Assembly: GCA_944393135.1 (NCBI GenBank)
Contig: CALXZC010000001.1
Span: 75,748-139,747 of the forward strand
Reading direction: 5' to 3'
Source: an uncultured Clostridia bacterium
Lineage (GTDB): Bacteria > Bacillota > Clostridia > TANB77 > CAG-508
DNA length: 64,000 bases
Both the position numbers and the translations under genes were made by a program. The notes below the pieces were generated by a model. That model did not search any database. It was not told the origin of the DNA and was given only the letters and a program-made list of their open reading frames with translations. Positions 140-15,606 of the stretch are shown here, piece by piece (positions within the stretch are counted from its first letter, which is position 1; each line of letters starts with the position of its first letter).

Positions 140-1063
140 ATGAAAAAAGATATTATTAGTGAAACAATGAAATTATTAAATGAGAATTATTTTGAAAGTA
201 AATTACAAGAAACTAGTCCTAGTCAAAATACTCCATATTCTATAGGAGATAATATAATTGAAGATACTGTTTCAAAAGAAGAATGGAGAATTAGTCATTT
301 AGTAGGAGATGCTAACTTTTGTGCTGGAACTCCAGATGATGTATTAGAAGAATTAAGTTATTTATATGGACCTGAAGGAGAAGGTATTGGTTGGACAGAA
401 AAAGAAGTACAACCAATTGAAGATTTAGTAAATAAACATAGAAATGAATGTAAATATGTAGCTGTTGAATTTCCAATGTTTTTAGAAGAACAACCAACAG
501 TTTATATTTATAAGATAGATGAGGATGGTACTATTTTAGAAATTTTAGATTCTTATATTTATAAAAATGAAGACACATTAAATGAAAGTAAATTACAGAT
601 AAATGAAGATTTAGAAGATGGCGACAATAAGGCTTATCATAACGAAGTAAATGAAAAATTAAGACAAGCAGATACAAATATAGACCGGTTAAATGATAAT
701 GATTTTAAATGTGCTATTACTTATTATCAAAATATGTTTCCAGGTGATGAAGGATTAACAGAAAAAGATTATCAAAAAATTTACGAAGCTTTACCTAATA
801 ATGAAATGCAACAAGAATTTTCAAATATGTGGGAAGGAATCACAGAGGAGTGGAATGTAAACCAACAAGAATATGATGCATTTAAAAATGTAATTGAAAA
901 TTTAGATTTACCTTCATATAAACAAGGAATGTTTCCATTATCTGTTAGTTGTATAAATAATGAAAATCGTGATTCTTATTTTATACCAGAATATAAAGAT
1001 ATTAATGATTCTTCAGTAGATATACAAAAAGATGATTTATATACTAAAATGTTAGAAGATTAA
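140..1063 (+). CDS. acidic hypothetical protein, paralog family 1 (N-terminal leader MKKDIISETMKLLNE); candidate packaged/internal protein
   Basis: ORF 307 aa; RBS aaaggagga 9 nt upstream; N-terminus shared with ORFs at 10689 and 13407. Confidence 0.75.
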   Translation: MKKDIISETMKLLNENYFESKLQETSPSQNTPYSIGDNIIEDTVSKEEWRISHLVGDANFCAGTPDDVLEELSYLYGPEGEGIGWTEKEVQPIEDLVNKHRNECKYVAVEFPMFLEEQPTVYIYKIDEDGTILEILDSYIYKNEDTLNESKLQINEDLEDGDNKAYHNEVNEKLRQADTNIDRLNDNDFKCAITYYQNMFPGDEGLTEKDYQKIYEALPNNEMQQEFSNMWEGITEEWNVNQQEYDAFKNVIENLDLPSYKQGMFPLSVSCINNENRDSYFIPEYKDINDSSVDIQKDDLYTKMLED

Positions 1064-1068
1064 TACTC

Positions 1069-1097
1069 TTTACATATTTTAAATTATATGTTATAAT
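1069..1097 (+). promoter_or_regulatory. sigma70-like promoter (TTTACA-17-TATAAT)
   Basis: ctcTTTACAtattttaaattatatgtTATAATatt upstream of ORF 1138. Confidence 0.5.
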
Positions 1098-1137
1098 ATT
1101 AATAGTTATTACATATAATATATAAAGGAGTTTAAAT

Positions 1138-1641
1138 ATGAATATTAAAGATAAGTTAATTGAATCACTATGTAATTTAATAAAGAAAGAGGAACAAACA
1201 CAAAAGTTATGTGAATTTTCAATGTCTAAACAATATATAGTTAATAAATTATGGGATATAAGATTAAAAGTCAATGAACATTTAATTTGTTGTTATATTT
1301 GGAATAATACAGATAATTATAATCATTGGAAAACAGAAGTAGGTGGTTTTTTTGAAAAATTACCTAGAGTAAAAGGAACAAATAAATTTCCAACAGAAAA
1401 ACAATTGCATAAATGGATAATAGATGATACAATAGAAGAAATAGAAGACAGCATTAATTATCTTGTAAGAAGAACAGAACAAGATGAAAAAGTAAATATA
1501 TCAAAATATGATTCTAAAGTATTACAAAATTATTTAATAGACTTTTGGAATTGGTTAGCAAATTATTTAGCAGATGGCAACGAGGTAATGCCAAATGATA
1601 TATACAGTGAAATAGACGAGTTAGTAAATAAATATAAATAG
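1138..1641 (+). CDS. hypothetical protein
   Basis: ORF 167 aa; RBS taaaggag; followed by hairpin terminator. Confidence 0.7.
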   Translation: MNIKDKLIESLCNLIKKEEQTQKLCEFSMSKQYIVNKLWDIRLKVNEHLICCYIWNNTDNYNHWKTEVGGFFEKLPRVKGTNKFPTEKQLHKWIIDDTIEEIEDSINYLVRRTEQDEKVNISKYDSKVLQNYLIDFWNWLANYLADGNEVMPNDIYSEIDELVNKYK

Positions 1642-1670
1642 ATGTATTTTAAAATACATCTATTATTTTT
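1640..1670 (+). terminator. rho-independent terminator
   Basis: agatgtatttt/aaaatacatct 11-bp stem then T-run. Confidence 0.7.
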
Positions 1671-1680
1671 GAAAATACTA

Positions 1681-1709
1681 TTGACATATTTTAAAATACA
1701 TTGTATAAT
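1681..1709 (+). promoter_or_regulatory. consensus sigma70 promoter TTGACA-17-TATAAT (TG immediately upstream of -10)
   Basis: TTGACAtattttaaaatacattgTATAAT, perfect -35/-10 with 17-nt spacer. Confidence 0.7.
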
Positions 1710-1772
1710 ATTTAATGTAAATAAAAATACACATAGTGTAAAATTAGTTTATTTACAGAAAGAGGTAGAAAT

Positions 1773-2501
1773 ATGAATAGTAGTACACAATTAATGATTT
1801 TAAGACCTGGAACAATTCCAGACAGAGATGTAATTTTAGGATTAAGAGGAACAAAAGCATTAAGTGTTTCAATGAAAGGTATGGATAGAGAAACAAAAGT
1901 TACAACTTGGTCATCTTTAGTAAGAACAGTAATTAATTGGTTAGAAGAAGATTTATTAGATATGGTAAATGCCATAGGTGTAGAAAGATTTAATGAAAAA
2001 TATATTGAAACATTAAATCAAAAATTAAAACAAACAGAAATAAAGCTAAATAGTAACTGTCCAGTAGGTATATTTAAAGATAACGATATAGATAATTATA
2101 TAAATAGTTCAGTATATCTTAATAATCAAAATCATAAATTAAAATTATTTGATTATAGTGGACATAGCTGGAATATATGTACAGTATATACAGGTGAAAT
2201 AATATTTGCCTTATCTACATTAATATCTATATTAGATGATTTTAAATGTAATATTTGTATGCAAAAAAGTTTAACTAACATACCAGATATGTTTGATATA
2301 CAAATAGTTTATATAAATAGAAAAGATTTACAATTACAAGAAGTAAATTTAGATAATTTTAATATAGAAGAAGATATAAATAAGAGTAATGTAAAAAATG
2401 CTATTGTAATAGCTTATGCTAGTTGTAAGTCTGTAGAAGCACAATTACTTAGTATATGTAGTATGTTAGATATAGACACAGACTTTTTAGATAAATTTTA
2501 A
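1773..2501 (+). CDS. hypothetical protein
   Basis: ORF 242 aa; RBS agaaagaggtag. Confidence 0.7.
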   Translation: MNSSTQLMILRPGTIPDRDVILGLRGTKALSVSMKGMDRETKVTTWSSLVRTVINWLEEDLLDMVNAIGVERFNEKYIETLNQKLKQTEIKLNSNCPVGIFKDNDIDNYINSSVYLNNQNHKLKLFDYSGHSWNICTVYTGEIIFALSTLISILDDFKCNICMQKSLTNIPDMFDIQIVYINRKDLQLQEVNLDNFNIEEDINKSNVKNAIVIAYASCKSVEAQLLSICSMLDIDTDFLDKF

Positions 2502-2528
2502 TAGTTATTAAATATAATAAATTTGAGT

Positions 2529-2545
2529 AAAATATTAGTAGGTAG
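2529..2545 (+). promoter_or_regulatory. late-type motif variant GTAAAATATTAGTAGG
   Basis: Member of recurring GTAAAATAtT..AG family; overlaps 5' arm of terminator hairpin. Confidence 0.35.
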
Positions 2546-2569
2546 AAATACCTACTAATTTTTATTTTA
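2536..2569 (+). terminator. rho-independent terminator
   Basis: tagtaggta-gaaa-tacctacta 9-bp stem followed by attttt atttt. Confidence 0.7.
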
Positions 2570-2586
2570 TGAAGGAGGAATTTAAA

Positions 2587-2985
2587 ATGGATTGGATGTC
2601 AGTTTTAAATCAATGTTTAGACATTATATTACCAGCTATTGCATCAGTAGTGGCCGTTTTATTTGGAGTACTTGGTACAAAAATTAAACAAATTTATAAT
2701 GAAAAAGCACAAAATGAAACAGTAAAAGTGGTTGTAGACAATGTAGTAAAATGGGTTCAACAAGTATATTATGAATTAGAAGGACCTGAAAAATTACAAA
2801 AAGCATTAACAGAAGCAAGCACAATATTAAATGAAAAAGGTATAACAATATCAGAAACAGAATTAGATATGATGATTGAAAGTGCTGTATATGGATTAAA
2901 AAATGGAACACAACAAGCTGAAGAAGTAGTAGAAATATTACCAGAAACAACAGAAACAACAGAAACAGTTATAGAAAATAAATAA
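2587..2985 (+). CDS. small membrane protein with one N-terminal TM helix and acidic C-terminal tail; candidate holin
   Basis: ATG 2587 follows RBS gaaggagga (the track's ATG at 2569 lies inside the RBS); hydrophobic ILPAIASVVAVLFGVLG. Confidence 0.55.
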   Translation: MDWMSVLNQCLDIILPAIASVVAVLFGVLGTKIKQIYNEKAQNETVKVVVDNVVKWVQQVYYELEGPEKLQKALTEASTILNEKGITISETELDMMIESAVYGLKNGTQQAEEVVEILPETTETTETVIENK

Positions 2986-3041
2986 TATATAAAGATTGTA
3001 ATATTTTAGGTTTATAATTTAAGGAAAGGAGAAATAAAATA

Positions 3042-5273
3042 ATGTCAAGTGGAACAATTTCAGCAAGTGGTTCGTGGCATACAGGTCCTACATTGGCAGC
3101 TTCTGGATCTGTTACATTCACAAGACCAGATGAAGCCAGTACTACTATACAAATATCTGGTTCTTTAGGTAACTATCCTGTTCGCCCAGATGATCCGGAA
3201 TATGAATATCATCTAAGAGTTGGTTATTATATAACTATAGACGGACGTACTGTTTGTAGTGGTACTGTTTGTAGTTCTAGTGAAAATGGTAGTGGTAGTA
3301 CCTCTGTAAATGCTACTGCTTCTTCCGACAATAGTTATCCTCGAATTGAAATACATTATACTTGTGGGGAATCCCCTCAATGTACAAAAGGACATCCTGA
3401 TGAGGTTGTAGGTAGTGGATATATTAGTTTACCTTATAACCCATATAAAACACCTACCATAGGTTGTAGCACTTCTTATAATATTTCAATATTTGATCGA
3501 AGAAGGGAAATGTGGGTTGACGCCAATTATTCAGGTGATGATTCTCCTACAACTACATGGGTCGTAGTAAATGGTAATAGAGAAGATTGGAATATAGGAA
3601 ATAGTGGTGGAACTTATGGATTTATACCTAGTCAAAAAGGTGTGTCTGATGGTGTGTCATATACATTTCAAGCCTATAGACAACATAATTATGCTACAGA
3701 TAAAGTAGCTTCTACAAGTTACACATTATATACATATAGAACACCAATTATTAATAGTGTTAGTGTAGATAATCCTAGTTTTAGTGGATTTGGAAAAGTT
3801 AATTTAAGTTGGAGAACAAATGCCAGAAGATGGAGTACAAGTCCAACAGAGGAACCATTTAAAACATACATTAGATTTAATACATCAAGTCCTTTGGCAG
3901 AATGGTTTGAATGTTCAAATAATAATCCTACTGGACCTAATACAAGTAATGAAACTTCTTTACAGTCCGTACAAATAACAAAAGATATGATTGATACTTA
4001 TTTCACCGTAGCTGAAAGATGCCAAGAATCATATAGTACTACCGTACAAATGAAAAGAACAAATGTATCAAGTACTATTGAAGCTGAGAGTAATACATTT
4101 GCAATTACAATACAATTTGCCCCAAAATATGCTCCTAATCAAATAAATTATTGGGATTACAATTCTTCTGCAAGTAATAATAGAGGTAATAGTATAAGTC
4201 CTGGAACAATATGTTATCTAGATTCACATCCTAGGATAGTTATAGATTGGTCTATGCCAAATCAAATAGATAGAGGTGTAATAGACGGATATGAATTATA
4301 TATTTATTCAAGTAGTTCTTATACAACTCATAAAACATTTGATGTTCCTGTGGGAGGTATTGTTACAGATTTATATGGGCAGTATGTAGCAAATATAAGA
4401 AGTGATTTATATAGGGGACAAATGAATTATGTTGGGGTTAGGGCTTATTATATAAATCCATTAGGTGACAAAATGTACGGACCAGAGTTAAGAAAACAAT
4501 TTGTATTTCCACTTGGAAGATTATATACACCAAAAATATCATACCCTGTTAATAATTCAAGATGGCATAATAAAAATTTTAGAATATTATTTGAGTTACC
4601 AACAGATGATGATTATGATGTTTTAAGTAGTTATATTTCAAATGATACATATACATATAAAGAGATTGAATTAACTATTAATGGAACAGTATATAAATAT
4701 ACAACAGACTCTAATATATTCAGTATAAATAAAATGGGTTATAAGTATAGAGTTTGTGTAAATCCATCAATATTAAGTTCATTTCCTGATACAGATACAT
4801 ATAGAATTACAGTAAGGGTACAAAAAAATTATTTTATGAATATTTGGTCCGGCACAAGTAGTACTACGGTTGTATATAAGACTCCTGTTACAAGACAAAA
4901 TTTAGTACAATTTACACCAATATTGGCAACACATTATAAACACGTACAATCAAGTTCAATACGTTTATATAATACATACCCAATAAAGTCTTTACCAACT
5001 AATAATGTGGATCAGGATGTAGGAGATGTTATTTATGCCAAACATTATCAAGCTATATTTGATACAGTTTTAGCAATACAAGATGGAGTAAATACATGGG
5101 CCCGTTATGATTCGGGTAAAGATCGATGTAAATTTCAACAAAACATAGATGAGTTTTCAGGTTCAGATAAAGCAACTAACGATTTAATAACGGCTCAAGA
5201 TGATGAAAGACCAACAAGACAAGGAAGAAATTATTTTAATATTTTAGTAGATAGTATGAATAAGTTATATTAA
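3042..5273 (+). CDS. Ser/Thr/Gly-rich large protein, candidate receptor-binding/structural protein; 5' ~700 nt noticeably GC-richer than surroundings
   Basis: ORF 743 aa; RBS aaggaaaggag; lies between lysis/structural genes. Confidence 0.7.
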   Translation: MSSGTISASGSWHTGPTLAASGSVTFTRPDEASTTIQISGSLGNYPVRPDDPEYEYHLRVGYYITIDGRTVCSGTVCSSSENGSGSTSVNATASSDNSYPRIEIHYTCGESPQCTKGHPDEVVGSGYISLPYNPYKTPTIGCSTSYNISIFDRRREMWVDANYSGDDSPTTTWVVVNGNREDWNIGNSGGTYGFIPSQKGVSDGVSYTFQAYRQHNYATDKVASTSYTLYTYRTPIINSVSVDNPSFSGFGKVNLSWRTNARRWSTSPTEEPFKTYIRFNTSSPLAEWFECSNNNPTGPNTSNETSLQSVQITKDMIDTYFTVAERCQESYSTTVQMKRTNVSSTIEAESNTFAITIQFAPKYAPNQINYWDYNSSASNNRGNSISPGTICYLDSHPRIVIDWSMPNQIDRGVIDGYELYIYSSSSYTTHKTFDVPVGGIVTDLYGQYVANIRSDLYRGQMNYVGVRAYYINPLGDKMYGPELRKQFVFPLGRLYTPKISYPVNNSRWHNKNFRILFELPTDDDYDVLSSYISNDTYTYKEIELTINGTVYKYTTDSNIFSINKMGYKYRVCVNPSILSSFPDTDTYRITVRVQKNYFMNIWSGTSSTTVVYKTPVTRQNLVQFTPILATHYKHVQSSSIRLYNTYPIKSLPTNNVDQDVGDVIYAKHYQAIFDTVLAIQDGVNTWARYDSGKDRCKFQQNIDEFSGSDKATNDLITAQDDERPTRQGRNYFNILVDSMNKLY

Positions 5274-5280
5274 AAAATTA

Positions 5281-5300
5281 AGTAAAATAATAGTAAAGGA
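5281..5300 (+). promoter_or_regulatory. late-type motif variant GTAAAATAATAGTAAAGGAG abutting RBS
   Basis: Near-identical to copy at 32361 (gtaaaataatagtaggagg). Confidence 0.4.
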
Positions 5301-5311
5301 GTTGATATAAT

Positions 5312-6622
5312 ATGTCATTAAAAGGTATAGATATAAGTAAATGGCAACAAGGTATGGATTTGGGTGCTGTTGATTTTGATTTTGTTATAATTAAAGCGAC
5401 TGAAGGAAAATCATATGTAGATGCTTATTGTGATAGTTTCTTTCAAAAGGCTTTAAGTATGGGTAAAAAAATAGGTGTATATCACTTTGCAAATAACCCA
5501 TCAAATTCTGCCGAACAAGAGGCAAATTGGTTTATTGAAAATACTAAAGGATATATAGGAAAAGCTATTCCAGTTCTTGACTGGGAAAGTAAAGATACAA
5601 GTAATGTGGCTTGGGCTTTAGAATGGTTACAAAGAGTAGAACAAGCTTATGGATGTAAACCAATGATATATATGAGTGAAAGTGTTGTAAACAGACACAA
5701 CTGGAGTTCTGTAGTAGCTGGAAATTATGGATTATGGGTTGCAAAATATAGAGATTATAATCCAGATTATAATTACGATATGAGTAATGCGGGTAGTGCT
5801 CCATCTGTAAAATATTGGTCAACTATTGCAATGTGGCAATGGACTTCTTGTGGAAGACTTAATGGATATAATGGAAATTTAGATTGTGATATATTTTATG
5901 GAGATAGTGCTGCGTGGAATGCTTATGTAGGAAACGGTGAAGGAACAAATGTAGATATAGGTGAATCTACTGTAAAACCGGACCCAGAGCCAACTAAGAA
6001 AACTAATGAAGAGATAGCAGACGAAGTTATTGCTGGACAATGGGGTAACGGAGATGAAAGAAGAAATAAATTAGAAGCAGCTGGATACGATTATGAGTCA
6101 ATACAAAAAATAGTAAACCAAAGATTTGAATCACAACCAGCAAATAGTACATATACAGTTAAATCAGGAGACACTTTAAGTGGTATTGGTTCTAAGTTGG
6201 GTGTAAATTGGCAAAGTATTGCTAGTGCAAATGGAATATCAAGTCCATACACAATATATCCAGGACAAGTGTTAACAATACCAGGAGGAAGTACAACAAG
6301 TACATCTACTTCAACAAATAGTACATATACAGTTAAATCAGGAGACACTTTAAGTGGTATTGGACAAAAATTAGGAGTTAATTGGAAAAATATAGCAAAC
6401 GCTAATGGTATTAGTTCTCCTTATACAATTTATACAGGACAAAAATTAACTATTCCAGGTGGAAATACATCTACAACAACTAGTAGAACATATACTGTAA
6501 AGAGTGGAGATACACTTTCTGAAATAGGACAAAAATTAGGAGTTAATTGGAAAAATATAGCAACAATGAATGGAATATCAAGTCCATATACAATTTATGT
6601 AGGTCAAAAATTAAAATATTAA
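5312..6622 (+). CDS. endolysin: N-terminal GH25 muramidase + CW_7-like repeat (GQWGNGDERR) + 3x LysM
   Basis: GIDISKWQ...DFDFVIIKATEG...GVYHF GH25 signature; three YTVKSGDTLSGIG...NGISSPYTIY LysM modules. Confidence 0.85.
   Translation: MSLKGIDISKWQQGMDLGAVDFDFVIIKATEGKSYVDAYCDSFFQKALSMGKKIGVYHFANNPSNSAEQEANWFIENTKGYIGKAIPVLDWESKDTSNVAWALEWLQRVEQAYGCKPMIYMSESVVNRHNWSSVVAGNYGLWVAKYRDYNPDYNYDMSNAGSAPSVKYWSTIAMWQWTSCGRLNGYNGNLDCDIFYGDSAAWNAYVGNGEGTNVDIGESTVKPDPEPTKKTNEEIADEVIAGQWGNGDERRNKLEAAGYDYESIQKIVNQRFESQPANSTYTVKSGDTLSGIGSKLGVNWQSIASANGISSPYTIYPGQVLTIPGGSTTSTSTSTNSTYTVKSGDTLSGIGQKLGVNWKNIANANGISSPYTIYTGQKLTIPGGNTSTTTSRTYTVKSGDTLSEIGQKLGVNWKNIATMNGISSPYTIYVGQKLKY
6145..6619 (+). repeat. 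three tandem ~150-bp direct repeats encoding LysM modules (copies 1 and 2 near-identical for first ~45 nt)
   Basis: aatagtacatatacagttaaatcaggagacactttaagtggtattgg repeated at 6148 and 6320; diverged third copy at 6484. Confidence 0.8.
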
Positions 6623-6633
6623 TAAAATAAAAA

Positions 6634-6666
6634 TAGTGTAGTGTTTAGTAAGCTACACTATTTTTA
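6634..6666 (+). terminator. rho-independent terminator after endolysin
   Basis: tagtgtag...ctacacta 8-bp stem + ttttt. Confidence 0.65.
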
Positions 6667-6730
6667 TATACTTAAATATTACGACAATCAATTTTAAACC
6701 GTTTTTATATAGAATTAATATAAGATTATA

Positions 6731-6749
6731 GTAAAATATTATTAGATGG
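6731..6749 (+). promoter_or_regulatory. late-type motif GTAAAATATTATTAGATGG
   Basis: Recurring motif; followed ~45 nt later by terminator 6792-6826 (possible short transcript). Confidence 0.4.
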
Positions 6750-6791
6750 AATTTCAAAAGTTCTATCATACATCACTTCCTATAAAATAGT

Positions 6792-6826
6792 AAGAGTAGT
6801 TTATACAAACTACTCTTATTTATTTT
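6792..6826 (+). terminator. rho-independent terminator
   Basis: aagagtagt-ttatacaa-actactctt 9-bp stem + atttatttt. Confidence 0.65.
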
Positions 6827-6846
6827 GTAAAATATTATTAGAGTAA
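6827..6846 (+). promoter_or_regulatory. late-type motif GTAAAATATTATTAGAGTAAG
   Basis: ~38 nt upstream of TTG start at 6873. Confidence 0.45.
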
Positions 6847-6872
6847 GTAACGTAAGGTGGTGAAATAAGAAA

Positions 6873-9800
6873 TTGAAATTTAAATTACAAGAAAAAGCTA
6901 ATATCGATTGGAATAATTATCTTACTAGGGATGAAGTGAAAAAGTTTCTTAGTAAGGATGATAAAATAGAAAGTGCTGAAAATATTATATATGATACACA
7001 AGGTAATTTCTTTAACAAGTATTGGAAAGATTTTAAAAAACAGGGATGGAAAAAATTAGAATTAGTAAACGATTTAGAAAGATTTTATACTAATGGTCAC
7101 TTAATAACAGAAGGAATACATTTAATAGCTTATGTTAAAGATAAAAAGAGTGGAGAGTATTCTACAATAGAAGATAGAGATTATAATTCTAAAAAAGATT
7201 TTGAAAAAGAATTAAAAGCAAATGGATATAGTAATATATCTATATTAGATAATAGAGATATGTATTTAATTGATAATACTAATTACACAAGAGTATCACA
7301 ATTAAAGAAAGATTTACAACAACTTAAAAAAGATATTAATGATACTAAGGATAAATATCCTGCTTTATATAAAAGTTATGTTAAAGAATATGACAAATTA
7401 AAAACTATATATGATAATGTAATGAAAATATCTTTAACAGAAGGATATGTATTAAAAGGAATACAAGATGGAAAATCTTTTAATATTTCTTTTAACGATA
7501 ATAAAGAAAAATTACAAAAATTTATGGATGAATTACAACCAAAACATAGAAATATAGATATGTTTATAGTAGAAGAAAGTAAGAAAATAGAAGCATTAAA
7601 ACCAATTAAAAAAGGACAAATGAAGATATTAAATATTGGTGGTGAAAAATTACAAGAAAACCTTAAAGATATAGTATTATACCACGGTTCATTAAACACT
7701 AATTTAACTTACTTGGATATAGGTAAGAGTACAGGTAATGGTGACCAATTAGGTAGAGGAATATATCTAACAACTGATTATGAACAGGCTCAAAGTTATG
7801 CAGGTAATAATGGAAAAGTATATAAAGTTAAATTAGATGATAGTTTAAAATTATTTAATTTAAATGACAAGTTAAGTGATAGTATTAAACAACAATTAAT
7901 TAAAGAATTAGAGAACTCTAATAACAAAGATATTAAAAATTATATTTGTATGTTTAATAGAAAAGTATATGATGTAAAAGATAAACAAGAGGGTTTAAAA
8001 TTTTATCAAGATAAACAAAAAGAATGGGAACAATTAGACGGTAAATATTTTGGTAACAGACCTAAAGTAGTTAAAAATGGAAATAATCTTCAAGTTATAT
8101 ATACAGATTACAGTGATATACAAAGTGCTATAAATAATATGACAGGTGAAAATCTTATAGATACATTAAGAGGAGATATAGACCCAGATGTATTTGTAAC
8201 AATCATAACAAATAGTGGATATGATGGAGTTATAACAAATAATAATCACTGGTATGTAATATATAAAGACATTAATAAAGTTCATATTTTAAATGAAAAT
8301 AGAAAATTTGATAATAAAAATAAATTAGAAGAAGTAAGTAGAAATGAATTATTAGTAAAAACAAAAGGAGAAACAATAACAAGATATAATAAAGCCGCAG
8401 GATATAAAGGATTTAGTATTATAAATATAGATACATCGGATTTATTAAGAGGAAACACATTAACAGTAACTTGTAGAGTAGGAAAATATAATGATGTATT
8501 ACAACTTGAAGATGTATTATATTGGATACAAATAGTCGCAGAAAATAAACAACAAAATCAAATAAATACAAAAGGAATAACAGAAGCGTTATCTAATTCA
8601 ATAGATGGAATGGATATAAAAGTAGATTGTAATTGTGGGGATTTTTGTTTAGAAGAGAATACATTAATAAAATTATTAAATGGACAGGTTGTAACAGTTA
8701 AACAATTAAAAGAGTTATTCGATAAACAAGAAGAATTGTGGATTTATTCAACGGATGAACAAGGTGATTTTAGACCTGGTAAGGTTAATAACGTATGGAT
8801 AAGTGGATATGTAAATGATATGATAAAAGTTACTTTAGATAATGGAAAAGAAATTATAACTACACCAGAACATAAATATATGATGAGAGATGGAAGTTAT
8901 AAAGAGGCACAAGATTTAAAAGAAAAAGATTCTTTAATGCCTTTGTATTTTAGCTATACAAACGGCTATGAAAATGTAAAAAGAAATAGTATTAAGTATC
9001 CAACTAGATTTGATAGTGTGTATAAAATAGTAGCTGATACAGTTTTACAGGAACAAAAACAACTGGCTAAGGATAGAACAGGGGAAGATATTATACAAAT
9101 ACATCATAAGGATTTTAATAAGTTAAATAATTATCCATCTAATTTATATCCTATGGGTAAAATGGAACATTGGATGTATCACGCTCATCTGGGTGGTAAA
9201 AATTTAGAGGCATTACAGGAAGGTAGTAGACGTTTTTGGACATCTGATCCAAGAAGATTTGAAACTAGAGAAAAACAAAAACAAGCTGCAAGGAATTATC
9301 AGTTAAAAATGTGGAGTAGTTTTACACCAAAACAAAGACAAAAATACATTAAAAAATTATCATATAATACTGATAAACAAAAATTATCCCAATCTTTACA
9401 AAATGTATGGAATAATTATACAGAGGAGGAAAAACAACAAAGATTACAAACTAATAATTTTGTAGTAAATAATCCAATGTTAAATGAACAGTTTATAAAA
9501 TCTGATAAGTTTATAGAGAGAAATAATAATATAAGTAATTCTTTAAATAGTTATCATAGTAAACTAACTAAAGAACAAGAACAGAAAATTTACGGTTGGG
9601 CAAAAAATAAACATTTCACAAAAGAACATAGAAAAAAACAAAGTGAAAGTATGAAACAATTTCACAAACAACACCCCGAATTTATACAACAACATTATGA
9701 AGAAATGGTTAAAGGTGCAGAAAAGGGTAGACAAAATAGAAGAAATAAAAAATTACAAAATATGACGGAAGAAGAAAAAGAATTATTTTTATTTAAAGAA

Positions 9801-10604
9801 CAACTTAATAATGTAGATATTAGTAATTATACACTTTCACAGAAAAACGTTATAGGGCATATAAAACCAGTTCTTATTGAAATATATAAAAATAAAGAAG
9901 ATTTTACAAAAGAAACTTATAATAAATATAGAACTAAATTTAATGCACCTAAATTAGAAACATTAGAAAAGATTTTGGGTAGTTGGGTTGATATATGTAA
10001 TAAATATTGTTTAAGTTACAATCATAAAGTAAAAAGTGTGGAATTTATACATTATAAAGAAGCTATACCTGTTTATGATATAGAAGTAGAAAAATATCAT
10101 AATTTCTATGTAGATGCTGGAGTAATGTTACATAATTGTTATAGATTTGCATATATCGCTACCGAATGGGGATATAAATATGGAAAACCAGAAACAAGAC
10201 CAGCTGATATAAGAAATCCAAATGGATTTGGAGCTCTATGTAAACATTTAACAGCAATGTTAAGTAATAAAAAATGGTTACAACAAGTAACAAGTACAGT
10301 TATGGATTGGTGTGAGAAAAATATAGACAAAATAAATGAATTTTTAAAATTAACAGATGAAGATGAACAATTAACCTTACCAAATGAACTTGCTAGACAA
10401 AATGCAAAATTAAGTTGGCAAAATAGAAGTAAAACTAATATAGGTGATAATAATGAAGAACAAAATGCAGAAGATACTGAAAATGATTTACAAGATGTTG
10501 ATAATAACAACGAAGATACTGATAATTCTAATAGTATTAATAATACTACGAATAGTAATGTAGACGACGAAACAGAGCTTGAAGATATAGATGCCAAAAA
10601 ATAA
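6873..10604 (+). CDS. large multidomain protein (1243 aa incl. intein); N-extein with PARP-like/ADP-ribosyltransferase-like signature (YHGS...GRGIYLT), CNC metal-site-like motif at intein junction; precursor containing HNH intein
   Basis: TTG start with RBS aaggtgg; continuous ORF; extein = 6873-8645 + 10137-10604. Confidence 0.7.
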   Translation: MKFKLQEKANIDWNNYLTRDEVKKFLSKDDKIESAENIIYDTQGNFFNKYWKDFKKQGWKKLELVNDLERFYTNGHLITEGIHLIAYVKDKKSGEYSTIEDRDYNSKKDFEKELKANGYSNISILDNRDMYLIDNTNYTRVSQLKKDLQQLKKDINDTKDKYPALYKSYVKEYDKLKTIYDNVMKISLTEGYVLKGIQDGKSFNISFNDNKEKLQKFMDELQPKHRNIDMFIVEESKKIEALKPIKKGQMKILNIGGEKLQENLKDIVLYHGSLNTNLTYLDIGKSTGNGDQLGRGIYLTTDYEQAQSYAGNNGKVYKVKLDDSLKLFNLNDKLSDSIKQQLIKELENSNNKDIKNYICMFNRKVYDVKDKQEGLKFYQDKQKEWEQLDGKYFGNRPKVVKNGNNLQVIYTDYSDIQSAINNMTGENLIDTLRGDIDPDVFVTIITNSGYDGVITNNNHWYVIYKDINKVHILNENRKFDNKNKLEEVSRNELLVKTKGETITRYNKAAGYKGFSIINIDTSDLLRGNTLTVTCRVGKYNDVLQLEDVLYWIQIVAENKQQNQINTKGITEALSNSIDGMDIKVDCNCGDFCLEENTLIKLLNGQVVTVKQLKELFDKQEELWIYSTDEQGDFRPGKVNNVWISGYVNDMIKVTLDNGKEIITTPEHKYMMRDGSYKEAQDLKEKDSLMPLYFSYTNGYENVKRNSIKYPTRFDSVYKIVADTVLQEQKQLAKDRTGEDIIQIHHKDFNKLNNYPSNLYPMGKMEHWMYHAHLGGKNLEALQEGSRRFWTSDPRRFETREKQKQAARNYQLKMWSSFTPKQRQKYIKKLSYNTDKQKLSQSLQNVWNNYTEEEKQQRLQTNNFVVNNPMLNEQFIKSDKFIERNNNISNSLNSYHSKLTKEQEQKIYGWAKNKHFTKEHRKKQSESMKQFHKQHPEFIQQHYEEMVKGAEKGRQNRRNKKLQNMTEEEKELFLFKEQLNNVDISNYTLSQKNVIGHIKPVLIEIYKNKEDFTKETYNKYRTKFNAPKLETLEKILGSWVDICNKYCLSYNHKVKSVEFIHYKEAIPVYDIEVEKYHNFYVDAGVMLHNCYRFAYIATEWGYKYGKPETRPADIRNPNGFGALCKHLTAMLSNKKWLQQVTSTVMDWCEKNIDKINEFLKLTDEDEQLTLPNELARQNAKLSWQNRSKTNIGDNNEEQNAEDTENDLQDVDNNNEDTDNSNSINNTTNSNVDDETELEDIDAKK
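8646..10136 (+). mobile_element. intein (497 aa) with HNH homing-endonuclease domain
   Basis: Starts Cys (CLEENTLIKLLNG, block A), TPEHKYM (block B), internal HH..N..H (IIQIHHKDFNKLNNYPSNLYPMGKMEHWMYHAHLGG), ends VYDIEVEKYHNFYVDAGVMLHN|C (blocks F/G, +1 Cys). Confidence 0.8.
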
Positions 10605-10627
10605 TTAAAAAATATTTATAAAAATCC

Positions 10628-10656
10628 TTTACAAATTTTTAAAAATATGTTATAAC
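10628..10656 (+). promoter_or_regulatory. sigma70-like promoter family copy (TTTACA-17-TATAAC)
   Basis: aaaatccTTTACAaatttttaaaaatatgtTATAACat. Confidence 0.6.
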
Positions 10657-10688
10657 ATAATTGTAAATTAAATATGGAGGAATTTTAA

Positions 10689-11050
10689 ATGAAAAAGAAT
10701 ATTATAAGTGAAACAATGAAATTGTTAAATGAGGAAACAAGTAGTCAGACAGTTACATTAGGTAATGTAAAAGTAAAGTTTATGGACAGGATGAATTAGA
10801 TTGTTTTAATGCTATAAAAAATAAAATACACGGATTAGAATCAAATGTAACAGCTTTAAATATAGATTTAATGCTAGAGGACAATACATATATAGAGTTT
10901 AAAACAAATGATGGTGCTGGAGAATTTATAGTTATATTTAGTAATGAAAATTTTGGAAAAGTAACAAATGTACAAACAACATTTTCAAATCAAGAAATAA
11001 CACAAGATTTTATAACATTAGCAAATGAATTATATACATTAAAAAATTAA
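10689..11050 (+). pseudogene. frameshifted member of paralog family 1 (MKKNIISETMKLLNE...); -1 frame change near 10781
   Basis: 37-aa ORF ends TAG 10797-99; remaining 89 codons continue in -1 frame with no start. Confidence 0.55.
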
Positions 11051-11094
11051 AAATATAATAAAATGTTATATTATAAATAAGGAGGAGGTAAATT

Positions 11095-11964
11095 ATGAAT
11101 AAAAAGGAAAAATTAGAAGAAGCTACAATAAAAGTATTACAAGGAAAATTAATTGAAAACGAAGATAAAAATTCTATGTTAAAAAGTTTAATAGCAGATA
11201 TAGTTAAAAATAACGATTTTACATTAAACCAAATAAATTTTGTTTTAAGTTGTGATACGACAAGTGGTTGGAGAAAAGAACTTACTACTGAACAAATAAA
11301 ATACATAATAAATAATTATAGTAACTTAATAGGTTCTACAGATAAACAACAAGATAATAATTACGAAGGTAGATTAAATGAATTAATTCGTATTTTAGTT
11401 GTTACTAATGATACTAATTTAACGGATTTCTTATTTAAAAATAATTATTCAGAATCAGACTTATATATACTATTTAGGAATGTGGTATCTGATTTTAAGG
11501 ATAAAAAAATTACTAAAGAACAACTTGATTTTATTATATATTCAAAAATAACAGATGAAGATACTATAGATAGTATAATTAAAGCCTTTAGTGAGGATAA
11601 ATTATCTATAAATCAGATAAAACAAATGATTAAAGACGGTAAAATAGGTTCAAAAAATGATAAAACAAAAACGTCTGGAAATGAACTATTAAATGAATTA
11701 TCTAATCAACTAAATGATGTAATAGACTTAGCATATGGTTGGGAAGTTGATGAGGATAGTATTTCCGGTGTTATAGACGATGATTATACTGTAGACATAT
11801 ATGCAAAAAATAATGGAAATAATATTGTTTTAGAGTATGAAAATAAAGAATATACAGATGTTAATACACTAATAAAAGATGTTATAAAAGATGTGAAAGC
11901 ATATACTCAATCTGTAATAGACGAATATGGTGAATACCCAAATTATTTAAATAATATTAAATAA
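11095..11964 (+). CDS. acidic hypothetical protein, paralog family 2 (N-terminus ..KLEEATIKVLQGKLIE)
   Basis: ORF 289 aa; RBS aaggaggagg; N-terminus shared with ORF 12014. Confidence 0.75.
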   Translation: MNKKEKLEEATIKVLQGKLIENEDKNSMLKSLIADIVKNNDFTLNQINFVLSCDTTSGWRKELTTEQIKYIINNYSNLIGSTDKQQDNNYEGRLNELIRILVVTNDTNLTDFLFKNNYSESDLYILFRNVVSDFKDKKITKEQLDFIIYSKITDEDTIDSIIKAFSEDKLSINQIKQMIKDGKIGSKNDKTKTSGNELLNELSNQLNDVIDLAYGWEVDEDSISGVIDDDYTVDIYAKNNGNNIVLEYENKEYTDVNTLIKDVIKDVKAYTQSVIDEYGEYPNYLNNIK

Positions 11965-12013
11965 TTATTATAATTAGATTTAAAATAAAAAATTAATAAG
12001 GAGTAATCGAAGT

Positions 12014-13255
12014 ATGAATATGAACGATAAATTAACAGAAGCCACTATTAAAGCTTTACAAGGAAAATTAAATTTAACAGAATCGTATGAAGTAACTATT
12101 CAAGAATTAGAAAAGTATATAGACAAACCAACTTCTTACGATGTTGAAGATATAAATAAATATACAACAAAAGGCAATTACCCAACTATAGACCATATAA
12201 TTAAAGTAATGCAAGGTGCTAACGCAGACTGGTTAAATTATACTAATAATGGAAAAGTAGCACATTATTCTATATATCATATTATAGATGTCCTTAGAGC
12301 TTATTCTAAGGGTTACGATGATAAAGGTATACAAGCATTAATGAATTCTTATGGAGTTGAGCATACTGGAGATGTTGGAGAACTTGCTATGAAAGCTTCT
12401 AGATTAAAACTAACAAGTGAACAGATTTCTACAATGGCAAATGAAGATATAGATGATATGTATCAAGAACAAATATTAAATAAAAGAGGTAAAACACAAC
12501 AAACAAATACAAAGAATAAATATACTAATTATTTTAAATCAATAGGATTATCTGATACAGACATACAATATATATTAAATAAATTGCAATCAGAAGACTC
12601 ATATACTGGTAAAGGATACTCAACAACAATTACAAATATGGTTAGGGATAACCTTAATGAGGAAGATGGAAAATTTCTTATACAATTAATAAGAAAATAT
12701 AGACGTGACGACGGTTACAATACAAATAATATGATTGCCTCCTATTATTTAGAAAAAATATTAGCTTCAGGTTTCGGTAGTAAAAACATACCAAATAAAT
12801 TTATTGAAGATATTTATAAAGAACGTGTAAAACCAAAACAAATTGAAGAAATACTATTAGGTATAAAAAATGGTTTAACAACAGAACAAGTATTATCTTA
12901 TATGGACCTAGATTTTAGTCCTCAAAAAATGAGAAAAATAAGACAAGGTTTAGAACAAGGAAAAACAATGGAACAAATATTTGCAAAATCAAAACCAAAA
13001 CAAAAAGAATATTCTGGTTTAACACCAAAACAAATATATGATGACTTATTAAAAGATGAAGGTGAAGATTATTTAAATGATTTAGCTTATGCCTATATGC
13101 AGACTAAAGATTTTGATTATTGGTTAGAGGAAGTAAGTGATTGGTCATTTGAAGAGTATGGTGGATTAATACCAGGAATAATGGAAGAATATAATGTATC
13201 AAGAAGTACAGCTATGGCAGTGGCAAAAAGATTATATAAAGAAGTTTCTGAATAA
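12014..13255 (+). CDS. hypothetical protein, paralog family 2 (..KLTEATIKALQGKLNLTE)
   Basis: ORF 413 aa; RBS taaggag. Confidence 0.75.
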   Translation: MNMNDKLTEATIKALQGKLNLTESYEVTIQELEKYIDKPTSYDVEDINKYTTKGNYPTIDHIIKVMQGANADWLNYTNNGKVAHYSIYHIIDVLRAYSKGYDDKGIQALMNSYGVEHTGDVGELAMKASRLKLTSEQISTMANEDIDDMYQEQILNKRGKTQQTNTKNKYTNYFKSIGLSDTDIQYILNKLQSEDSYTGKGYSTTITNMVRDNLNEEDGKFLIQLIRKYRRDDGYNTNNMIASYYLEKILASGFGSKNIPNKFIEDIYKERVKPKQIEEILLGIKNGLTTEQVLSYMDLDFSPQKMRKIRQGLEQGKTMEQIFAKSKPKQKEYSGLTPKQIYDDLLKDEGEDYLNDLAYAYMQTKDFDYWLEEVSDWSFEEYGGLIPGIMEEYNVSRSTAMAVAKRLYKEVSE

Positions 13256-13287
13256 ATAATTATTAATATAATTAGGAGGTAAAACTT

Positions 13288-13404
13288 ATGATATATAATA
13301 AGGATAAAGAATATACTTTAAAATATGTAACAAGTGAAGGAGAACAAAAAGAATTACAATTATTAAAAGAAGCTAAGAAACAACAAATTAAGAAGGAGTT
13401 TTAA
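13288..13404 (+). CDS. small ORF (38 aa) whose N-terminus (MIYNKDKEYTLKYVT) parallels that of ORF 13979 (MLYNKDTEYNIKYIT)
   Basis: RBS ttaggaggt 9 nt upstream; below track length cutoff. Confidence 0.4.
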   Translation: MIYNKDKEYTLKYVTSEGEQKELQLLKEAKKQQIKKEF

Positions 13405-13406
13405 AA

Positions 13407-13958
13407 ATGAAAAAAGATGTAGTAAGTGAAACAATGAGATTATTAAATGAAAACAATGGAAAATATTATTATGACGTTCATATATCAGAAGATGAAGTAA
13501 CAGGAATGGGATATTCAGTATTTGTAAAATCTGACATACATTTTGACGAAGATCTAGAAGCAGAGGATATAATAGACTTAGCAATACAACAAGGTAAATT
13601 AGATTCAGAAGAAGCACAATATTGTGATTATGTATCAGAAATAGATGAACAAGAATATTTGGACGCAGCACCACACAGTTCATTAACAGAAGATGAACAA
13701 AATACTGATGTATATAATGCATTAAAGGAATTAGAAAAAGAAAATGATTTTAGTTCTGTTTCAAGATATGGTGGTGAAAATATACATATATCTTTATATG
13801 TGGGGGATAGACAAGAAATATATGGCAGTATTGATACAGTAAATAAAACTGCAAAACTAACAGCAGGTTCAGGTCCAAACCCATTAGACCCAGATTTTTT
13901 AGCATTATTAAATAAGTTAGCACAAATATTAAAAGGATATAATATGTTACATTATTAA
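13407..13958 (+). CDS. acidic hypothetical protein, paralog family 1 (MKKDVVSETMRLLNE...)
   Basis: ORF 183 aa; RBS agaaggag. Confidence 0.75.
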   Translation: MKKDVVSETMRLLNENNGKYYYDVHISEDEVTGMGYSVFVKSDIHFDEDLEAEDIIDLAIQQGKLDSEEAQYCDYVSEIDEQEYLDAAPHSSLTEDEQNTDVYNALKELEKENDFSSVSRYGGENIHISLYVGDRQEIYGSIDTVNKTAKLTAGSGPNPLDPDFLALLNKLAQILKGYNMLHY

Positions 13959-13978
13959 TAAAGGGGGTATAATCAATA

Positions 13979-15496
13979 ATGTTATATAATAAAGATACAG
14001 AATACAATATTAAATATATAACAGTAGATGGTGATAAGAAGGAAATAACTTATACACCAGAAAAAGATATGTCAGTACCTGAAATAATTACAATGTTAAA
14101 AAATAAAGATAAAGATTTCTTTAAATTATTAAAAGAAAGTAAGTTTGATAAAGTGTCTAAAAAGATATTTAATAAAGGAAAACAAGATGGTATGACAAAA
14201 GATGATGCTGATGCAATTGCAGCAAGTATAGGAAGAAAAAAGTATGGAAAGGAGAAATTTCAAAAAATGGCACAAAAAGGAAAGAAAACAGAAGCAGATA
14301 ATACTAGTGGAACATTATCAATAGATTTAAATACAGGAGTATTACCTATAGTAGATGTAGATATGTACTCTATGAGTGATATGATAAATGATTTTGATGT
14401 AACACAAAAGGAACTAGATGATATAGTAATGGAGACAGCACCAGAGTATATAGAAGATACATTAAGTGAAATATTATCAGGGGTATCTGTAATTGCAAAA
14501 TCTGTATATCATCCATCACAATATAATTATTCCGGAGATGAATTAGAGTTTACATTAAATTGTGATAAAGGAGGTTATGAATCTCTAAAAGAAAGAACAT
14601 TACAAAATGAATCATTTAGTAAATTCTTAAAAGATAACTATTCTTCACACAGTGGTTTTATATCATCTATGGCAGATAATTTAGATGATTTTGAAACACA
14701 GGAAGAATGGAAACAGGTAGTACAAGTTATAATGTTTAATGTACCACAAAAAACACTAGAATATAATAAAGATGCATATAATGATAAATTTATGGATATA
14801 TTAAGTTCAAATTATCCAATGATAGATGACGAAGATTATGATGACTATGTAAATGAAGATTTAGAAGAAAGTAAAAAAATGATAAAAGAAAATAATGCAA
14901 CTGAAATTGATGAAAATAAAAAAATAGTAGAGGATGATGAGGTAGAAATGATAGATAGTGACAGTAAGGGTGAAGATATGACAGAAACACAAGAAAATAT
15001 GGAACAAGCTGTACAAGAATTAGGGGATATAGATTCTGAGACAGAATTTGGAATAGATACTATTGCAAGTACAATAGATGTATTAATAGCTGATGAACAA
15101 TCTGCAATAGATGGTTATAATTCCTTCTTGGAACAATGTAAAGAAACAATACCGGAAGAATTATATAATACAATAGAAAAAGAATTACAAGAAATAATAC
15201 AAGACGAAGAAGACCATATAAATAAACTAAATACTATTAAAAATGTTCTTCATACAGAAGATGTTCCTTTAGACGAGTCTAAAATATTGGAAAGTGTAAA
15301 AAACATAGAAGATTTAGAAGTTGGGGATGAATTAACAATACCTTATGCTAGAGGTCCTAAATATACAGAGGACAAATCACAATGGGTAAAAGGTAAAGTT
15401 ATAGATATGGGTACTGATTATATAGATTTAGAAGTACCAACAACTTTAACCGTAACAAAAAGACAAGCAGAAGAATGGTTGTCTAAATTACAATAA
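13979..15496 (+). CDS. highly acidic hypothetical protein (505 aa)
   Basis: RBS aaggggg; followed by strong terminator. Confidence 0.75.
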   Translation: MLYNKDTEYNIKYITVDGDKKEITYTPEKDMSVPEIITMLKNKDKDFFKLLKESKFDKVSKKIFNKGKQDGMTKDDADAIAASIGRKKYGKEKFQKMAQKGKKTEADNTSGTLSIDLNTGVLPIVDVDMYSMSDMINDFDVTQKELDDIVMETAPEYIEDTLSEILSGVSVIAKSVYHPSQYNYSGDELEFTLNCDKGGYESLKERTLQNESFSKFLKDNYSSHSGFISSMADNLDDFETQEEWKQVVQVIMFNVPQKTLEYNKDAYNDKFMDILSSNYPMIDDEDYDDYVNEDLEESKKMIKENNATEIDENKKIVEDDEVEMIDSDSKGEDMTETQENMEQAVQELGDIDSETEFGIDTIASTIDVLIADEQSAIDGYNSFLEQCKETIPEELYNTIEKELQEIIQDEEDHINKLNTIKNVLHTEDVPLDESKILESVKNIEDLEVGDELTIPYARGPKYTEDKSQWVKGKVIDMGTDYIDLEVPTTLTVTKRQAEEWLSKLQ

Positions 15497-15542: not shown

Positions 15543-15577
15543 GGAATTAGTGTAAAAACTAATTCCTTTTTATTTTT
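15543..15577 (+). terminator. rho-independent terminator
   Basis: ggaattagt-gtaaaa-actaattcc 9-bp stem + tttttattttt. Confidence 0.75.
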
Positions 15578-15586: not shown

Positions 15587-15606
15587 GTAAAATATTATTA
15601 GATATT
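15587..15606 (+). promoter_or_regulatory. late-type motif GTAAAATATTATTAGATATT
   Basis: Directly after terminator, 35 nt upstream of ORF 15630. Confidence 0.45.

Follow-up and report, generated by a model that had tools for sequence, protein, structure and literature searches.

Several acidic proteins encoded in a 64,000-nt stretch of phage DNA (contig CALXZC010000001.1; hereafter the "window," with all coordinates counted from its first letter) begin with a common leader peptide of 14 to 25 amino acids (aa), and their sequences are unrelated beyond it. The best explanation for this leader is that it functions as a propeptide resembling the capsid-targeting sequence (CTS) of phage T4, which would address the attached proteins to the phage head and be removed there by the phage's own prohead protease. 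Judging from the sequence comparisons described below, we consider this explanation probable, if by no means secure. Such a T4-like role was suggested by an earlier sequence-only reading of the window, and the comparative evidence backs it, except that one of three proposed leader families and one-third of a claim about promoters did not stand as given.

The phage is known from metagenome assemblies alone, and it has no match within the cultured-phage collection. The same lineage is present in several ENA metagenome assemblies (L020, L021). L019 is a close relative, and L001 through L007, L016, L017, and L022 are more distant relatives. The window has a G+C content of about 25%, and its + strand carries nearly all of its genes. 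Among cultured phages, Bacillus SP-15, Listeria LIS04, and Streptococcus vB_SagM-GXN1 come closest, with a protease that is only 31 to 37% identical. Because the phage encodes an endolysin with GH25, CW_7, and LysM domains, the host is probably a Gram-positive bacterium of the Firmicutes.

Two of the leader families proposed previously were found where expected. The open reading frames (ORFs, named here by their first nucleotide) 140, 10689, and 13407 open with MKK[DN][IV][IV]SETM[KR]LLNE (family 1), and ORFs 11095 and 12014 open with MN..[ED]KL.EATIK.LQGKL(I|NLT)E (family 2). However, alignment of 21 leaders from the window and its relatives reveals that these are not separate leaders, but two length forms of a single superfamily with the common core L/I-x-E-x-T-[MI]-x-x-L-[QN]. 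The short form ends in ..T[MI][KR]LL[NK]E and, in the wider alignment, stops at ..L-[NKTQ]-E. In the long form (MN.KDKL.E[AN]T[MI]..LQGKL.E), Gly replaces this terminal Glu and is followed by K-L-x-E, such that an L-x-E ending is regained four residues beyond the final Glu that the short form would have had. Intermediate forms are present in L022 (MNQKDLLLENTIKKLQE) and L004 (MNQKDKLLEATIKVLTE).

Within the window, ORF 140 (140–1063, + strand; 307 aa; isoelectric point [pI] 4.16; no known domain) carries the short form MKKDIISETMKLLNE at 140–184, with a predicted cut after E15, and this leader is kept in orthologues P0001 through P0003. A homologue search with this protein returned four matches, all of them orthologues. 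Another short-form gene (10689–11050, + strand; leader MKKNIISETMKLLNE at 10689–10733) is frameshifted, in that a 1-nt deletion near 10775 divides it into ORF 10689 (36 aa) and ORF 10871 (59 aa). This gene is intact, at about 120 aa, in L019 and P0006, and L020 and L021 share the lesion. ORF 13407 (13407–13958, + strand; 183 aa, pI 4.25) also has a short-form leader (MKKDVVSETMRLLNE at 13407–13451), which is retained by its orthologue in L022. The long form opens ORF 11095 (11095–11964, + strand; 289 aa, pI 4.55; leader MNKKEKLEEATIKVLQGKLIE at 11095–11157), for which Pfam and PDB sequence searches yielded no relative, and ORF 12014 (12014–13255, + strand; 413 aa, pI 5.18; leader MNMNDKLTEATIKALQGKLNLTE at 12014–12082), an orphan body that has no PDB relative and that matched only one cluster of 97% identity in a homologue search. 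As was proposed previously, the bodies are unrelated past the leader, with BLASTP similarity limited to 15 to 28 residues for family 1 and 48 residues for family 2, and the full-length proteins are acidic (pI 4.2 to 5.2). Sequence searches against Pfam, PHROGs, and PDB gave no usable annotation for the leader proteins or their bodies. Likewise, the leader itself has no Pfam match and is not a described polyvalent-protein domain.

Comparisons of the coding sequences demonstrate that selection acts on the leader peptide. Among eight long-form leaders that are joined to unrelated bodies, the proportion of synonymous differences (pS) is 0.53 and that of nonsynonymous differences (pN) is 0.185, compared to 0.58 and 0.68, respectively, for the 21 unrelated codons that follow. 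The corresponding values for the short-form leader are 0.41 (pS) and 0.10 (pN). Moreover, the Leu residues of the leader are encoded by five different codons (TTA, CTG, CTA, CTT, and TTG), and the DNA upstream of the leaders is not conserved and differs even among paralogues.

The leader is widespread. An exhaustive search of 1.84 billion cluster representatives with a leader profile produced 124 matches at E ≤ 1e-3, of which 122 are real. The conserved Thr is located at residues 7 to 13, meaning at the extreme N-terminus, in 121 of these 122 library leaders, and in 120 of them the GK[L] core is followed by its first Glu within two to five residues. The leader therefore is not a chance resemblance, because the profile finds 122 real proteins and matches 121 at the very N-terminus. 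The 93 bodies of at least 60 aa form 58 BLASTP clusters, almost none of which is recognized by Pfam. Up to seven paralogues occur in one genome, as in L004, where seven long-form leaders precede unrelated bodies in genes located directly after the capsid gene. A degenerate DNA pattern revealed 12 further metagenome loci, in which the leader is always at the start of an ORF. Other searches were less productive. A strict DNA pattern for the short-form core gave eight matches on viral contigs, and all those inspected were internal chance matches; a longer DNA pattern found one relative only; a word-indexed search with a 45-aa leader alignment gave only four short matches; and tblastn searches of cultured phages with the leader found nothing.

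The two forms are also interchangeable. In three body families, one phage has the short leader and another phage has the long one, as seen for ORF 13407 and P0105 (2e-22), an L019 gene and P0033 (4e-17), and L017_12545 and P0073 (3e-19). In these pairs, homology between the bodies starts at or just past the terminal Glu, and for ORF 13407 and its long-form counterpart P0105 it begins five residues past the final Glu of the leader. A simple leader swap was also considered for L022 and L019, and this claim was softened because BLASTP aligns the two N-termini; the pair instead shows divergence between the leader flavors. In addition, the cultured relative Streptococcus phage vB_SagM-GXN1 (L040, PQ819873) has an 8-aa leader of its own, MRL[VI][RK]L[TN]E. 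Four small genes (80 to 116 aa) located after its capsid gene, at 24590, 24846, 26406, and 35101, open with this sequence or with MRLIRISRITE, and each has a strong ribosome-binding site. This leader represents an independent short leader family ending in L-x-E, and its presence in a cultured phage makes the leader idea testable in the laboratory.

The sequence at the end of the leader resembles a protease site. Counting back from the predicted cut, P1 is Glu in both the curated set of 26 leaders and the library of 122, and P3 is Leu in 23 and 102 of them, respectively. P2 is free, with 10 different residues in the curated set and 11 in the library, and P1′ is S, N, D, G, E, A, or T in 25 of the 26 curated and 103 of the 122 library leaders. 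The previously noted endings LNE, LIE, and LTE are present. However, an [LI]-x-E sequence by itself is a weak signal and proves little, because it is frequent in this proteome.

A protease that could act on such sites is encoded in the window, as was recognized earlier. ORF 40579 (40579–42033, + strand) is a prohead protease–scaffold fusion of the T4 gp21 type with a coiled-coil C-terminal extension (Peptidase_S77, 6.6e-13; phrog_207 head maturation protease, 5e-41), and its His (GELDHP) and Ser (ISSRGMG) motifs are kept and align with those of T4 gp21. The terminal motif of the leader also recurs in proteins of the kinds that gp21-type proteases are known to cut. At residues 176 and 185 of the fusion protein there are L-x-E|S sites, and residue 239 marks an NKLTE|A site. 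Six relatives have all three of these sites, namely SLTE|SK and KLTE|S at the protease/scaffold junction and NKLTE|AN in the scaffold part, and the C-terminal ..ITE|S of T4 gp21 is the sequence with which the junction aligns. The gp23-like capsid protein, which also had been recognized (Pfam Gp23 match, 1.5e-10), is encoded by a gene with two exons (42262–44888, + strand; exons at about 42262–42561 and 43806–44888). Near its N-terminus this protein has a conserved KRI[GNS]LLE|[STN]AR, which reads ..KRINLLE|TAR in the window. Similar ends are found in T4 (NC_000866), including MKTYQEFIAE|A in ipII and ipIII, ..STITE|A in ipI, MAKINELLRE|S in gp24, MELITELFDE|D in Alt, and ..FLTE|AEIGG in gp23.

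Two types of promoter-like sequence are relevant to when the leader genes might be expressed. Type A is a sigma70-like (host sigmaA-type) promoter with the structure CTTTACAAATTTT-N6-TATGTTATAA, and six copies are present in the window compared to 0.02 expected. These precede ORFs 140, 1138, 10689, 36036, and 49338, with another at 57385, and a more diverged copy at 46788 precedes ORF 46842. The sequence-only reading assigned such a promoter to each family 1 gene, which is correct for ORF 140 (copy at 54–82, + strand) and ORF 10689 (copy at 10627–10655, + strand), but not for ORF 13407, which starts 2 nt after the stop codon of ORF 13288. Type B is a 16-nt motif, GTAAAATATTATTAGA, with copies at 2527, 6731, 6827, 15587, 23070, 40514, and 42056. 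Allowing at most two mismatches, it precedes holin-like, ADP-ribosyltransferase, tail-fiber, and capsid genes (six matches versus 1.17 expected), and a copy with three mismatches precedes the protease gene. In relatives, the type B motif precedes the protease and capsid genes and also leader genes (L001 at 15988, L004 at 13408 and 18415, and L007 at 13232). This motif is probably the late promoter of this phage group.

The leader cluster at 10689–15496 lies within a unit (6873–15496) that opens at a type B motif and includes the type A promoter upstream of ORF 10689. The start of the unit is marked by a terminator-like hairpin (6789–6820) followed by the GTAAAATATTATTAGA motif at 6827–6842 (together 6789–6842, + strand), with the second copy at 6731 nearby. 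A terminator-like hairpin at 15543–15566 (+ strand) closes the unit, and the next type B motif follows at 15587–15602. Because there is no terminator between these bounding hairpins, the leader cluster shares a unit with the large ADP-ribosyltransferase protein encoded directly upstream.

Leader genes occupy late or structural modules, and their positions in relatives provide additional context. In L031, a leader gene directly follows the protease gene and is located between the protease and capsid genes. In L026, L028, L035, and L036, the leader genes have a putative neck-type gene on one side and genes that resemble tail sheath and terminase on the other, where these roles were assigned by eye from the sequences. 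The gene order in L044 is Gp23, homing endonuclease, ART-PolyVal protein, leader protein, and metallophosphatase. In L001, a stand-alone ART-PolyVal protein (9.3e-16) starts with the leader-like MNLQEIYIKLRE|S. For polyvalent ADP-ribosyltransferases, packaging in the virion and delivery together with the DNA are predicted, and Alt of T4 is a packaged protein (PMC5512222).

From the leader and its selection regime, portability, terminal motif, and genomic company, together with the family of the protease, we infer the following course of docking, cleavage, packaging, injection, and effector function. The leader would be a capsid-targeting (prohead-core-targeting) propeptide that, like the T4 CTS, docks the attached protein on the scaffolding core built by the ORF 40579 fusion during head assembly, and the shell would then close around this core. 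The S77 protease would cut after the terminal L-x-E, as it would cut itself, the scaffold, and the capsid protein. The leader peptide would leave, and the mature acidic protein would stay in the head and enter the host with the DNA. The cargo set would comprise the products of ORF 140, the frameshifted 10689 gene, and ORFs 11095, 12014, and 13407. ORF 13979 possibly encodes cargo as well, which would be delivered through a 53-aa N-terminal domain ending in KLLKE.

This capsid-targeting reading is backed by the presence of an S77 protease, by selection at the level of the peptide, by the unrelated bodies, and by the interchangeable leader forms. It is further backed by the recurrence of the L-x-E end at the protease/scaffold junction and at the capsid N-terminus, and by the leader genes of relatives that follow the same motif that precedes protease and capsid genes. 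Several observations, however, weigh against it. The cargo is strongly acidic, in contrast to the basic internal proteins of T4, and the leader has no sequence similarity to the T4 CTS. Twenty of the 122 library leaders are without Leu at P3, [LI]-x-E occupies 1.5% of proteome positions, and 19 of 65 window genes have such a sequence ending at residues 8 to 25. The type A promoter that is found before the cluster, ORF 140, and ORF 46842 also occurs in the presumed early region, which favors expression that is early or constitutive and not strictly late, and the window cluster could be expressed late only if transcription reads through from the motif at 6827. In two relatives, L004 and L043, the leader genes are mixed with early-type small genes and a metallophosphatase gene. 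In ORF 46842, a leader-like stretch is internal rather than N-terminal, and no start codon or ribosome-binding site precedes it. Finally, the leader was considered as an amphipathic helix, and this candidate was rejected, given that the hydrophobic moment of the long form is no higher than that of shuffled sequences.

Some of these observations would be expected if the leader were an uncleaved N-terminal module that binds a common intracellular partner, such as a host target, a phage chaperone, or an oligomerization partner. The proteins would then be ordinary early proteins and not virion cargo. The type A promoter copies before ORFs 140, 1138, 10689, and 46842, which recur in the presumed early region, fit this possibility, as do the small genes and the metallophosphatase gene that accompany the leader genes in L004 and L043 and the dissimilarity of the acidic cargo to T4 internal proteins. 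It is also compatible with an AlphaFold2 model of ORF 140, of a confidence too low for a fold search (pLDDT 49, four sequences), in which the leader forms a helix from residue 2 to 13 that is followed by a disordered stretch. Nevertheless, we regard an uncleaved module as unlikely. The Leu-any-Glu-small/polar end fits a protease site rather than the face of a helix, the long form regains its L-x-E after losing the final Glu of the short form, and the same motif is conserved in the protease–scaffold and capsid proteins. Furthermore, the leader genes of relatives either adjoin the protease gene or come after the same motif as the protease and capsid genes do, and there is no leader among the approximately 35 genes at 47.5 to 64 kb. 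Another possibility is that the leader does target the prohead core, but that the attached proteins are assembly components that are degraded or expelled at maturation, like T4 gp67, gp68, and gp22. This proposal draws on the same targeting and cleavage evidence, and acidic, low-complexity, poorly conserved bodies are indeed reminiscent of the proteins of a scaffold or core, with gp67 of T4 as an extremely acidic example. The three acidic proteins encoded directly upstream of the protease, and the L031 leader gene between the protease and capsid genes, are likewise consistent with it. What makes it distinctly improbable in our judgment is that at least 58 unrelated body families, with up to seven members per genome and rapid gain and loss, are a poor match for essential components, and that the neighbors are ADP-ribosyltransferase polyvalent effectors. 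In addition, the 10689 gene must be dispensable, because it is broken in a lineage recovered from several assemblies.

It is far less plausible that the conserved element is DNA or RNA and that its coding is incidental. It might be a shared region that regulates genes or initiates their translation, or it might be a cassette for recombination, comparable to the promoter stem-loop cassettes known from T4-type phages. ORFs 140 and 10689 do share about 90 nt of upstream sequence, with promoter and ribosome-binding site, in addition to the leader. Remnants at 13288 and at L016 12505–12600 suggest recombination at gene 5′ ends, and alt.-1 and alt.-2 of T4 are annotated as a similar partial duplication. 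However, we reject a nucleic acid element as the primary explanation, because the synonymous sites of the leader are nearly randomized, to almost the same extent as in unrelated codons, while pN is strongly reduced (0.19 versus 0.68), because its Leu codons vary, and because the upstream DNA differs. Moreover, ORF 13407 has the leader without the promoter. Recombination at the leaders is best seen as a consequence, and not as the function. We assign an equally slight chance to the leader being a degradation or processing tag for a host protease, either a Clp-type N-degron or a substrate of Prp, the ribosomal-protein-L27 protease used by some Firmicutes phages, with no involvement of S77. Capsid and scaffold proteins processed by Prp are known from Staphylococcus phage 80alpha, and the host in the present case is probably a Firmicute, as indicated by the endolysin domains and by nearest cultured relatives that infect Bacillus, Listeria, and Streptococcus. 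Yet the L27-type motif of Prp is ..LQFFA|S, which the leader does not resemble, whereas the terminal motif of the leader fits the Glu-at-P1 specificity of gp21-type proteases and the junction sites of the phage's own protease.

Although the capsid-targeting reading takes T4 as its model, the resemblance is one of kind and not of sequence. In T4, the CTS is a propeptide of 10 to 20 residues that is removed by gp21, and the diverse internal proteins of T-even phages share only this sequence (PMC5694885, PMC3012670). As with the CTS of IPI–III, Alt, and gp24, the leader is a short N-terminal peptide common to otherwise unrelated proteins of one phage, and its predicted end corresponds to (L/I/F)-x-E followed by a small residue. 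Both systems include a gp21-family (S77) protease with its catalytic residues, a scaffold core, and a gp23-type capsid. In both, cargo genes are hypervariable and located outside the core head cluster, an ADP-ribosyltransferase is found among or beside the cargo, and partial 5′ duplications are left in the genome (alt.-1 and alt.-2 in T4). However, when read beside the T4 N-termini (ipI, ipII, ipIII, alt, and gp24; NC_000866), the leader exhibits no homology to MKTYQEFIAE and its relatives, and what the two have in common is confined to a terminal hydrophobic-x-E. The leaders are usually longer than the CTS (14 to 25 aa), and they come in two interchangeable length forms. They precede at least 58 body clusters, with up to seven per genome, in phages whose hosts are probably Firmicutes. 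In addition, the window cargo has pI values of 4.2 to 5.2 and lengths of 183 to 505 aa, compared to 8.9 to 9.5 and 95 to 193 aa for the T4 internal proteins. Because it lacks both homology to the CTS and basic cargo, the leader is best filed as working like a CTS rather than as part of a T4 internal-protein homologue. Thus, this is the T4 CTS principle in kind, on a distant gp21/gp23 branch, and a new family with regard to sequence, cargo chemistry, and scale.

Three other systems invite comparison. The phiKZ-like giant phages have a gp21-type protease that recognizes S/A/G-x-E, and most of their propeptides exceed 100 residues; gp53 and gp54 of SPN3US share 15 identical N-terminal residues, and a prohead-targeting role was proposed for the propeptide (PMC5694885). 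Phages of this type (phiKZ, 201phi2-1, and SPN3US) resemble the window in having a gp21-type protease, Glu at P1, and paralogues with conserved N-termini. However, with Leu at P3 and a length of 14 to 25 aa, the present leaders are closer to those of T4 and do not belong with the phiKZ-like propeptides. The polyvalent proteins (Iyer et al. 2017, PMC5512222) are represented in the window by a protein with an LPD11 domain and by a large protein whose orthologues match ART-PolyVal and DUF3990. Leader genes adjoin them, and the stand-alone ART-PolyVal protein noted above has a leader-like N-terminus. Only these neighbors qualify as polyvalent, and the leader proteins are without such domains. Polyvalent proteins join many effector domains in one chain, whereas here separate small proteins share an address peptide. 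Finally, the Dar proteins of phage P1 (DarA, DarB, and Hdf) are nonessential, head-packaged proteins, some of them proteolytically processed, that are injected to counter host defense. P1, however, has no shared short leader, its incorporation proceeds hierarchically through DarA and Hdf, and its protease and capsid lineage differ.

We can extend the capsid-targeting reading in a more speculative manner. The leader may be a shipping label that is universal, and readable from sequence, throughout a large uncultured clade of phages that have T4-type heads and probably infect Firmicutes. The at least 58 body families, which are strongly acidic and in nearly every case devoid of known domains, would then form a prepackaged arsenal of first-strike effectors. 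We hold this broader proposal only tentatively, and consider it somewhat more likely to be wrong than right. If it were correct, any protein starting with MN.KDKL.EAT..ALQGKL.E or with the short form would be loaded, trimmed by S77, and injected. The effectors might include DNA-mimic antirestriction proteins or partners of the neighboring ADP-ribosyltransferases, and new cargo would be gained by recombination at the leader-coding 5′ end. If the leader is a capsid address, metagenomic sequence would suffice to read the set of injected proteins, here 122 protein clusters on at least 58 unrelated and unannotated bodies, across an entire clade without cultured members. Injected proteins are prime candidates for antidefense and host-takeover functions, because they are active ahead of all phage gene expression. 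A further possible use of the leader is to tag foreign proteins for packaging into the capsids of Gram-positive phages, as the T4 CTS is used in Escherichia coli. More generally, the T4 principle of a short address peptide ending in L-x-E would extend to a distant gp21/gp23 head branch.

The evolution of the locus can also be seen, in the form of leader-form exchange, partial 5′ duplications, and frameshift decay. Gene content between the ADP-ribosyltransferase protein and the family 3 gene (ORF 13979) differs from phage to phage. This interval holds one leader gene in L017 and two in L022, and in the window it holds three intact leader genes, a broken one, and the remnant of a family 3 gene. 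In L016, only a 31-aa leader remnant (12505–12600, MDLQEATMK..) is present where L017 has an intact leader gene. This suggests that leader-coding 5′ ends serve as recombination points and that remnants are left behind. A scar of this kind is also present in T4, whose annotation attributes alt.-1 and alt.-2 to an old duplication that involved the 5′ part of alt. Length variation is also evident in the ORF 140 family. In L019 (9384–10597), the gene is split into ORFs of 155 and 198 aa, and the latter starts with extra sequence absent from ORF 140; P0003 (399 aa) has a similar segment in frame.

The remnant in the window bears on family 3, which the sequence-only reading treated as a third portable leader. 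The shared M[IL]YNKD.EY..KY[IV]T was indeed found at 13288 and 13979, but it belongs to a conserved gene and a truncated copy of its 5′ end. ORF 13979 (13979–15496, + strand; 505 aa, pI 4.30) lies at the end of the unit. Its conservation extends to all relatives, and it has full-length orthologues in L016, L017, and L022 but no PDB relative. It begins with a conserved N-terminal domain of about 53 aa (13979–14137) ending in ..FFKLLKE, which is followed by a divergent part and then by a conserved C-terminal region. The mini-ORF (13288–13404, + strand; 38 aa) is the 5′-end remnant of such a gene and, over 23 aa, shares 65% identity with the ORF 13979 orthologues of L016 and L017.

ORF 6873 (6873–10604, + strand), located directly upstream of the leader cluster, encodes a polyvalent-type protein of 1243 aa with an ADP-ribosyltransferase region (YHGS..GRGIYLT). 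This protein is interrupted within a Cys-rich motif by an intein (Intein_splicing, 1.1e-24). The gene is intact without an intein in L016 and L017, and in L022 it is split in two, again without an intein. For the orthologues in L022 through L024, precomputed Pfam matches include DUF3990 and, weakly, ART-PolyVal. ORF 1138 (1138–1641, + strand; 167 aa) has its own type A promoter copy at 1068–1096. Its N-terminus (MNIKDKLIES...) matches the long-form leader in the first nine residues only, with a weak hidden Markov model match (E 0.12), and thus it is a possible degenerate member of the leader family.

A second group of acidic proteins is encoded by ORFs 36036, 37875, and 39251, which together with a type A promoter copy at 35973–36001 occupy 35973–40390 (+ strand), directly upstream of the protease gene. 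ORF 39251 carries the polyvalent-protein domain LPD11 (6.6e-32). ORF 36036 (36036–37862; 608 aa) has the N-terminus MKARFKRSVINE|S, as read from its translation, and contains two internal repeats of about 95 aa, each followed by DLRE[SN]KK[IL][TN]ES, where [LI]-x-E sites are clustered.

The internal leader-like stretch mentioned above, NKNVVNETIRLITE (47025–47066, + strand), corresponds to residues 62 to 75 of ORF 46842 (46842–47414). This is the first gene past the capsid gene and its homing endonuclease, a position at which relatives carry leader genes. ORF 46842 has no relatives in the loci fetched, and it may be a small upstream gene fused to a leader gene.

The capsid gene is interrupted by a 1.24-kb insert carrying an ORF (42713–43633) that looks like a homing endonuclease. 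This insert matches no Rfam intron family, even at E ≤ 1, and phages of Thomasclavelia, Bacillus, Fusobacterium, and Staphylococcus have unannotated DNA with 69 to 79% identity to the segment at 43600–43765. The capsid gene is directly followed by a 559-aa ORF (45083–46762) with a precomputed match to DUF7487, which from its sequence also looks like a homing endonuclease, and equivalents of this ORF follow the capsid gene in L001 and L044. Toward the far end of the window, two tRNA genes, Trp (CCA; 61093–61167) and Leu (TAA; 61360–61448), are located within a 627-nt gap.

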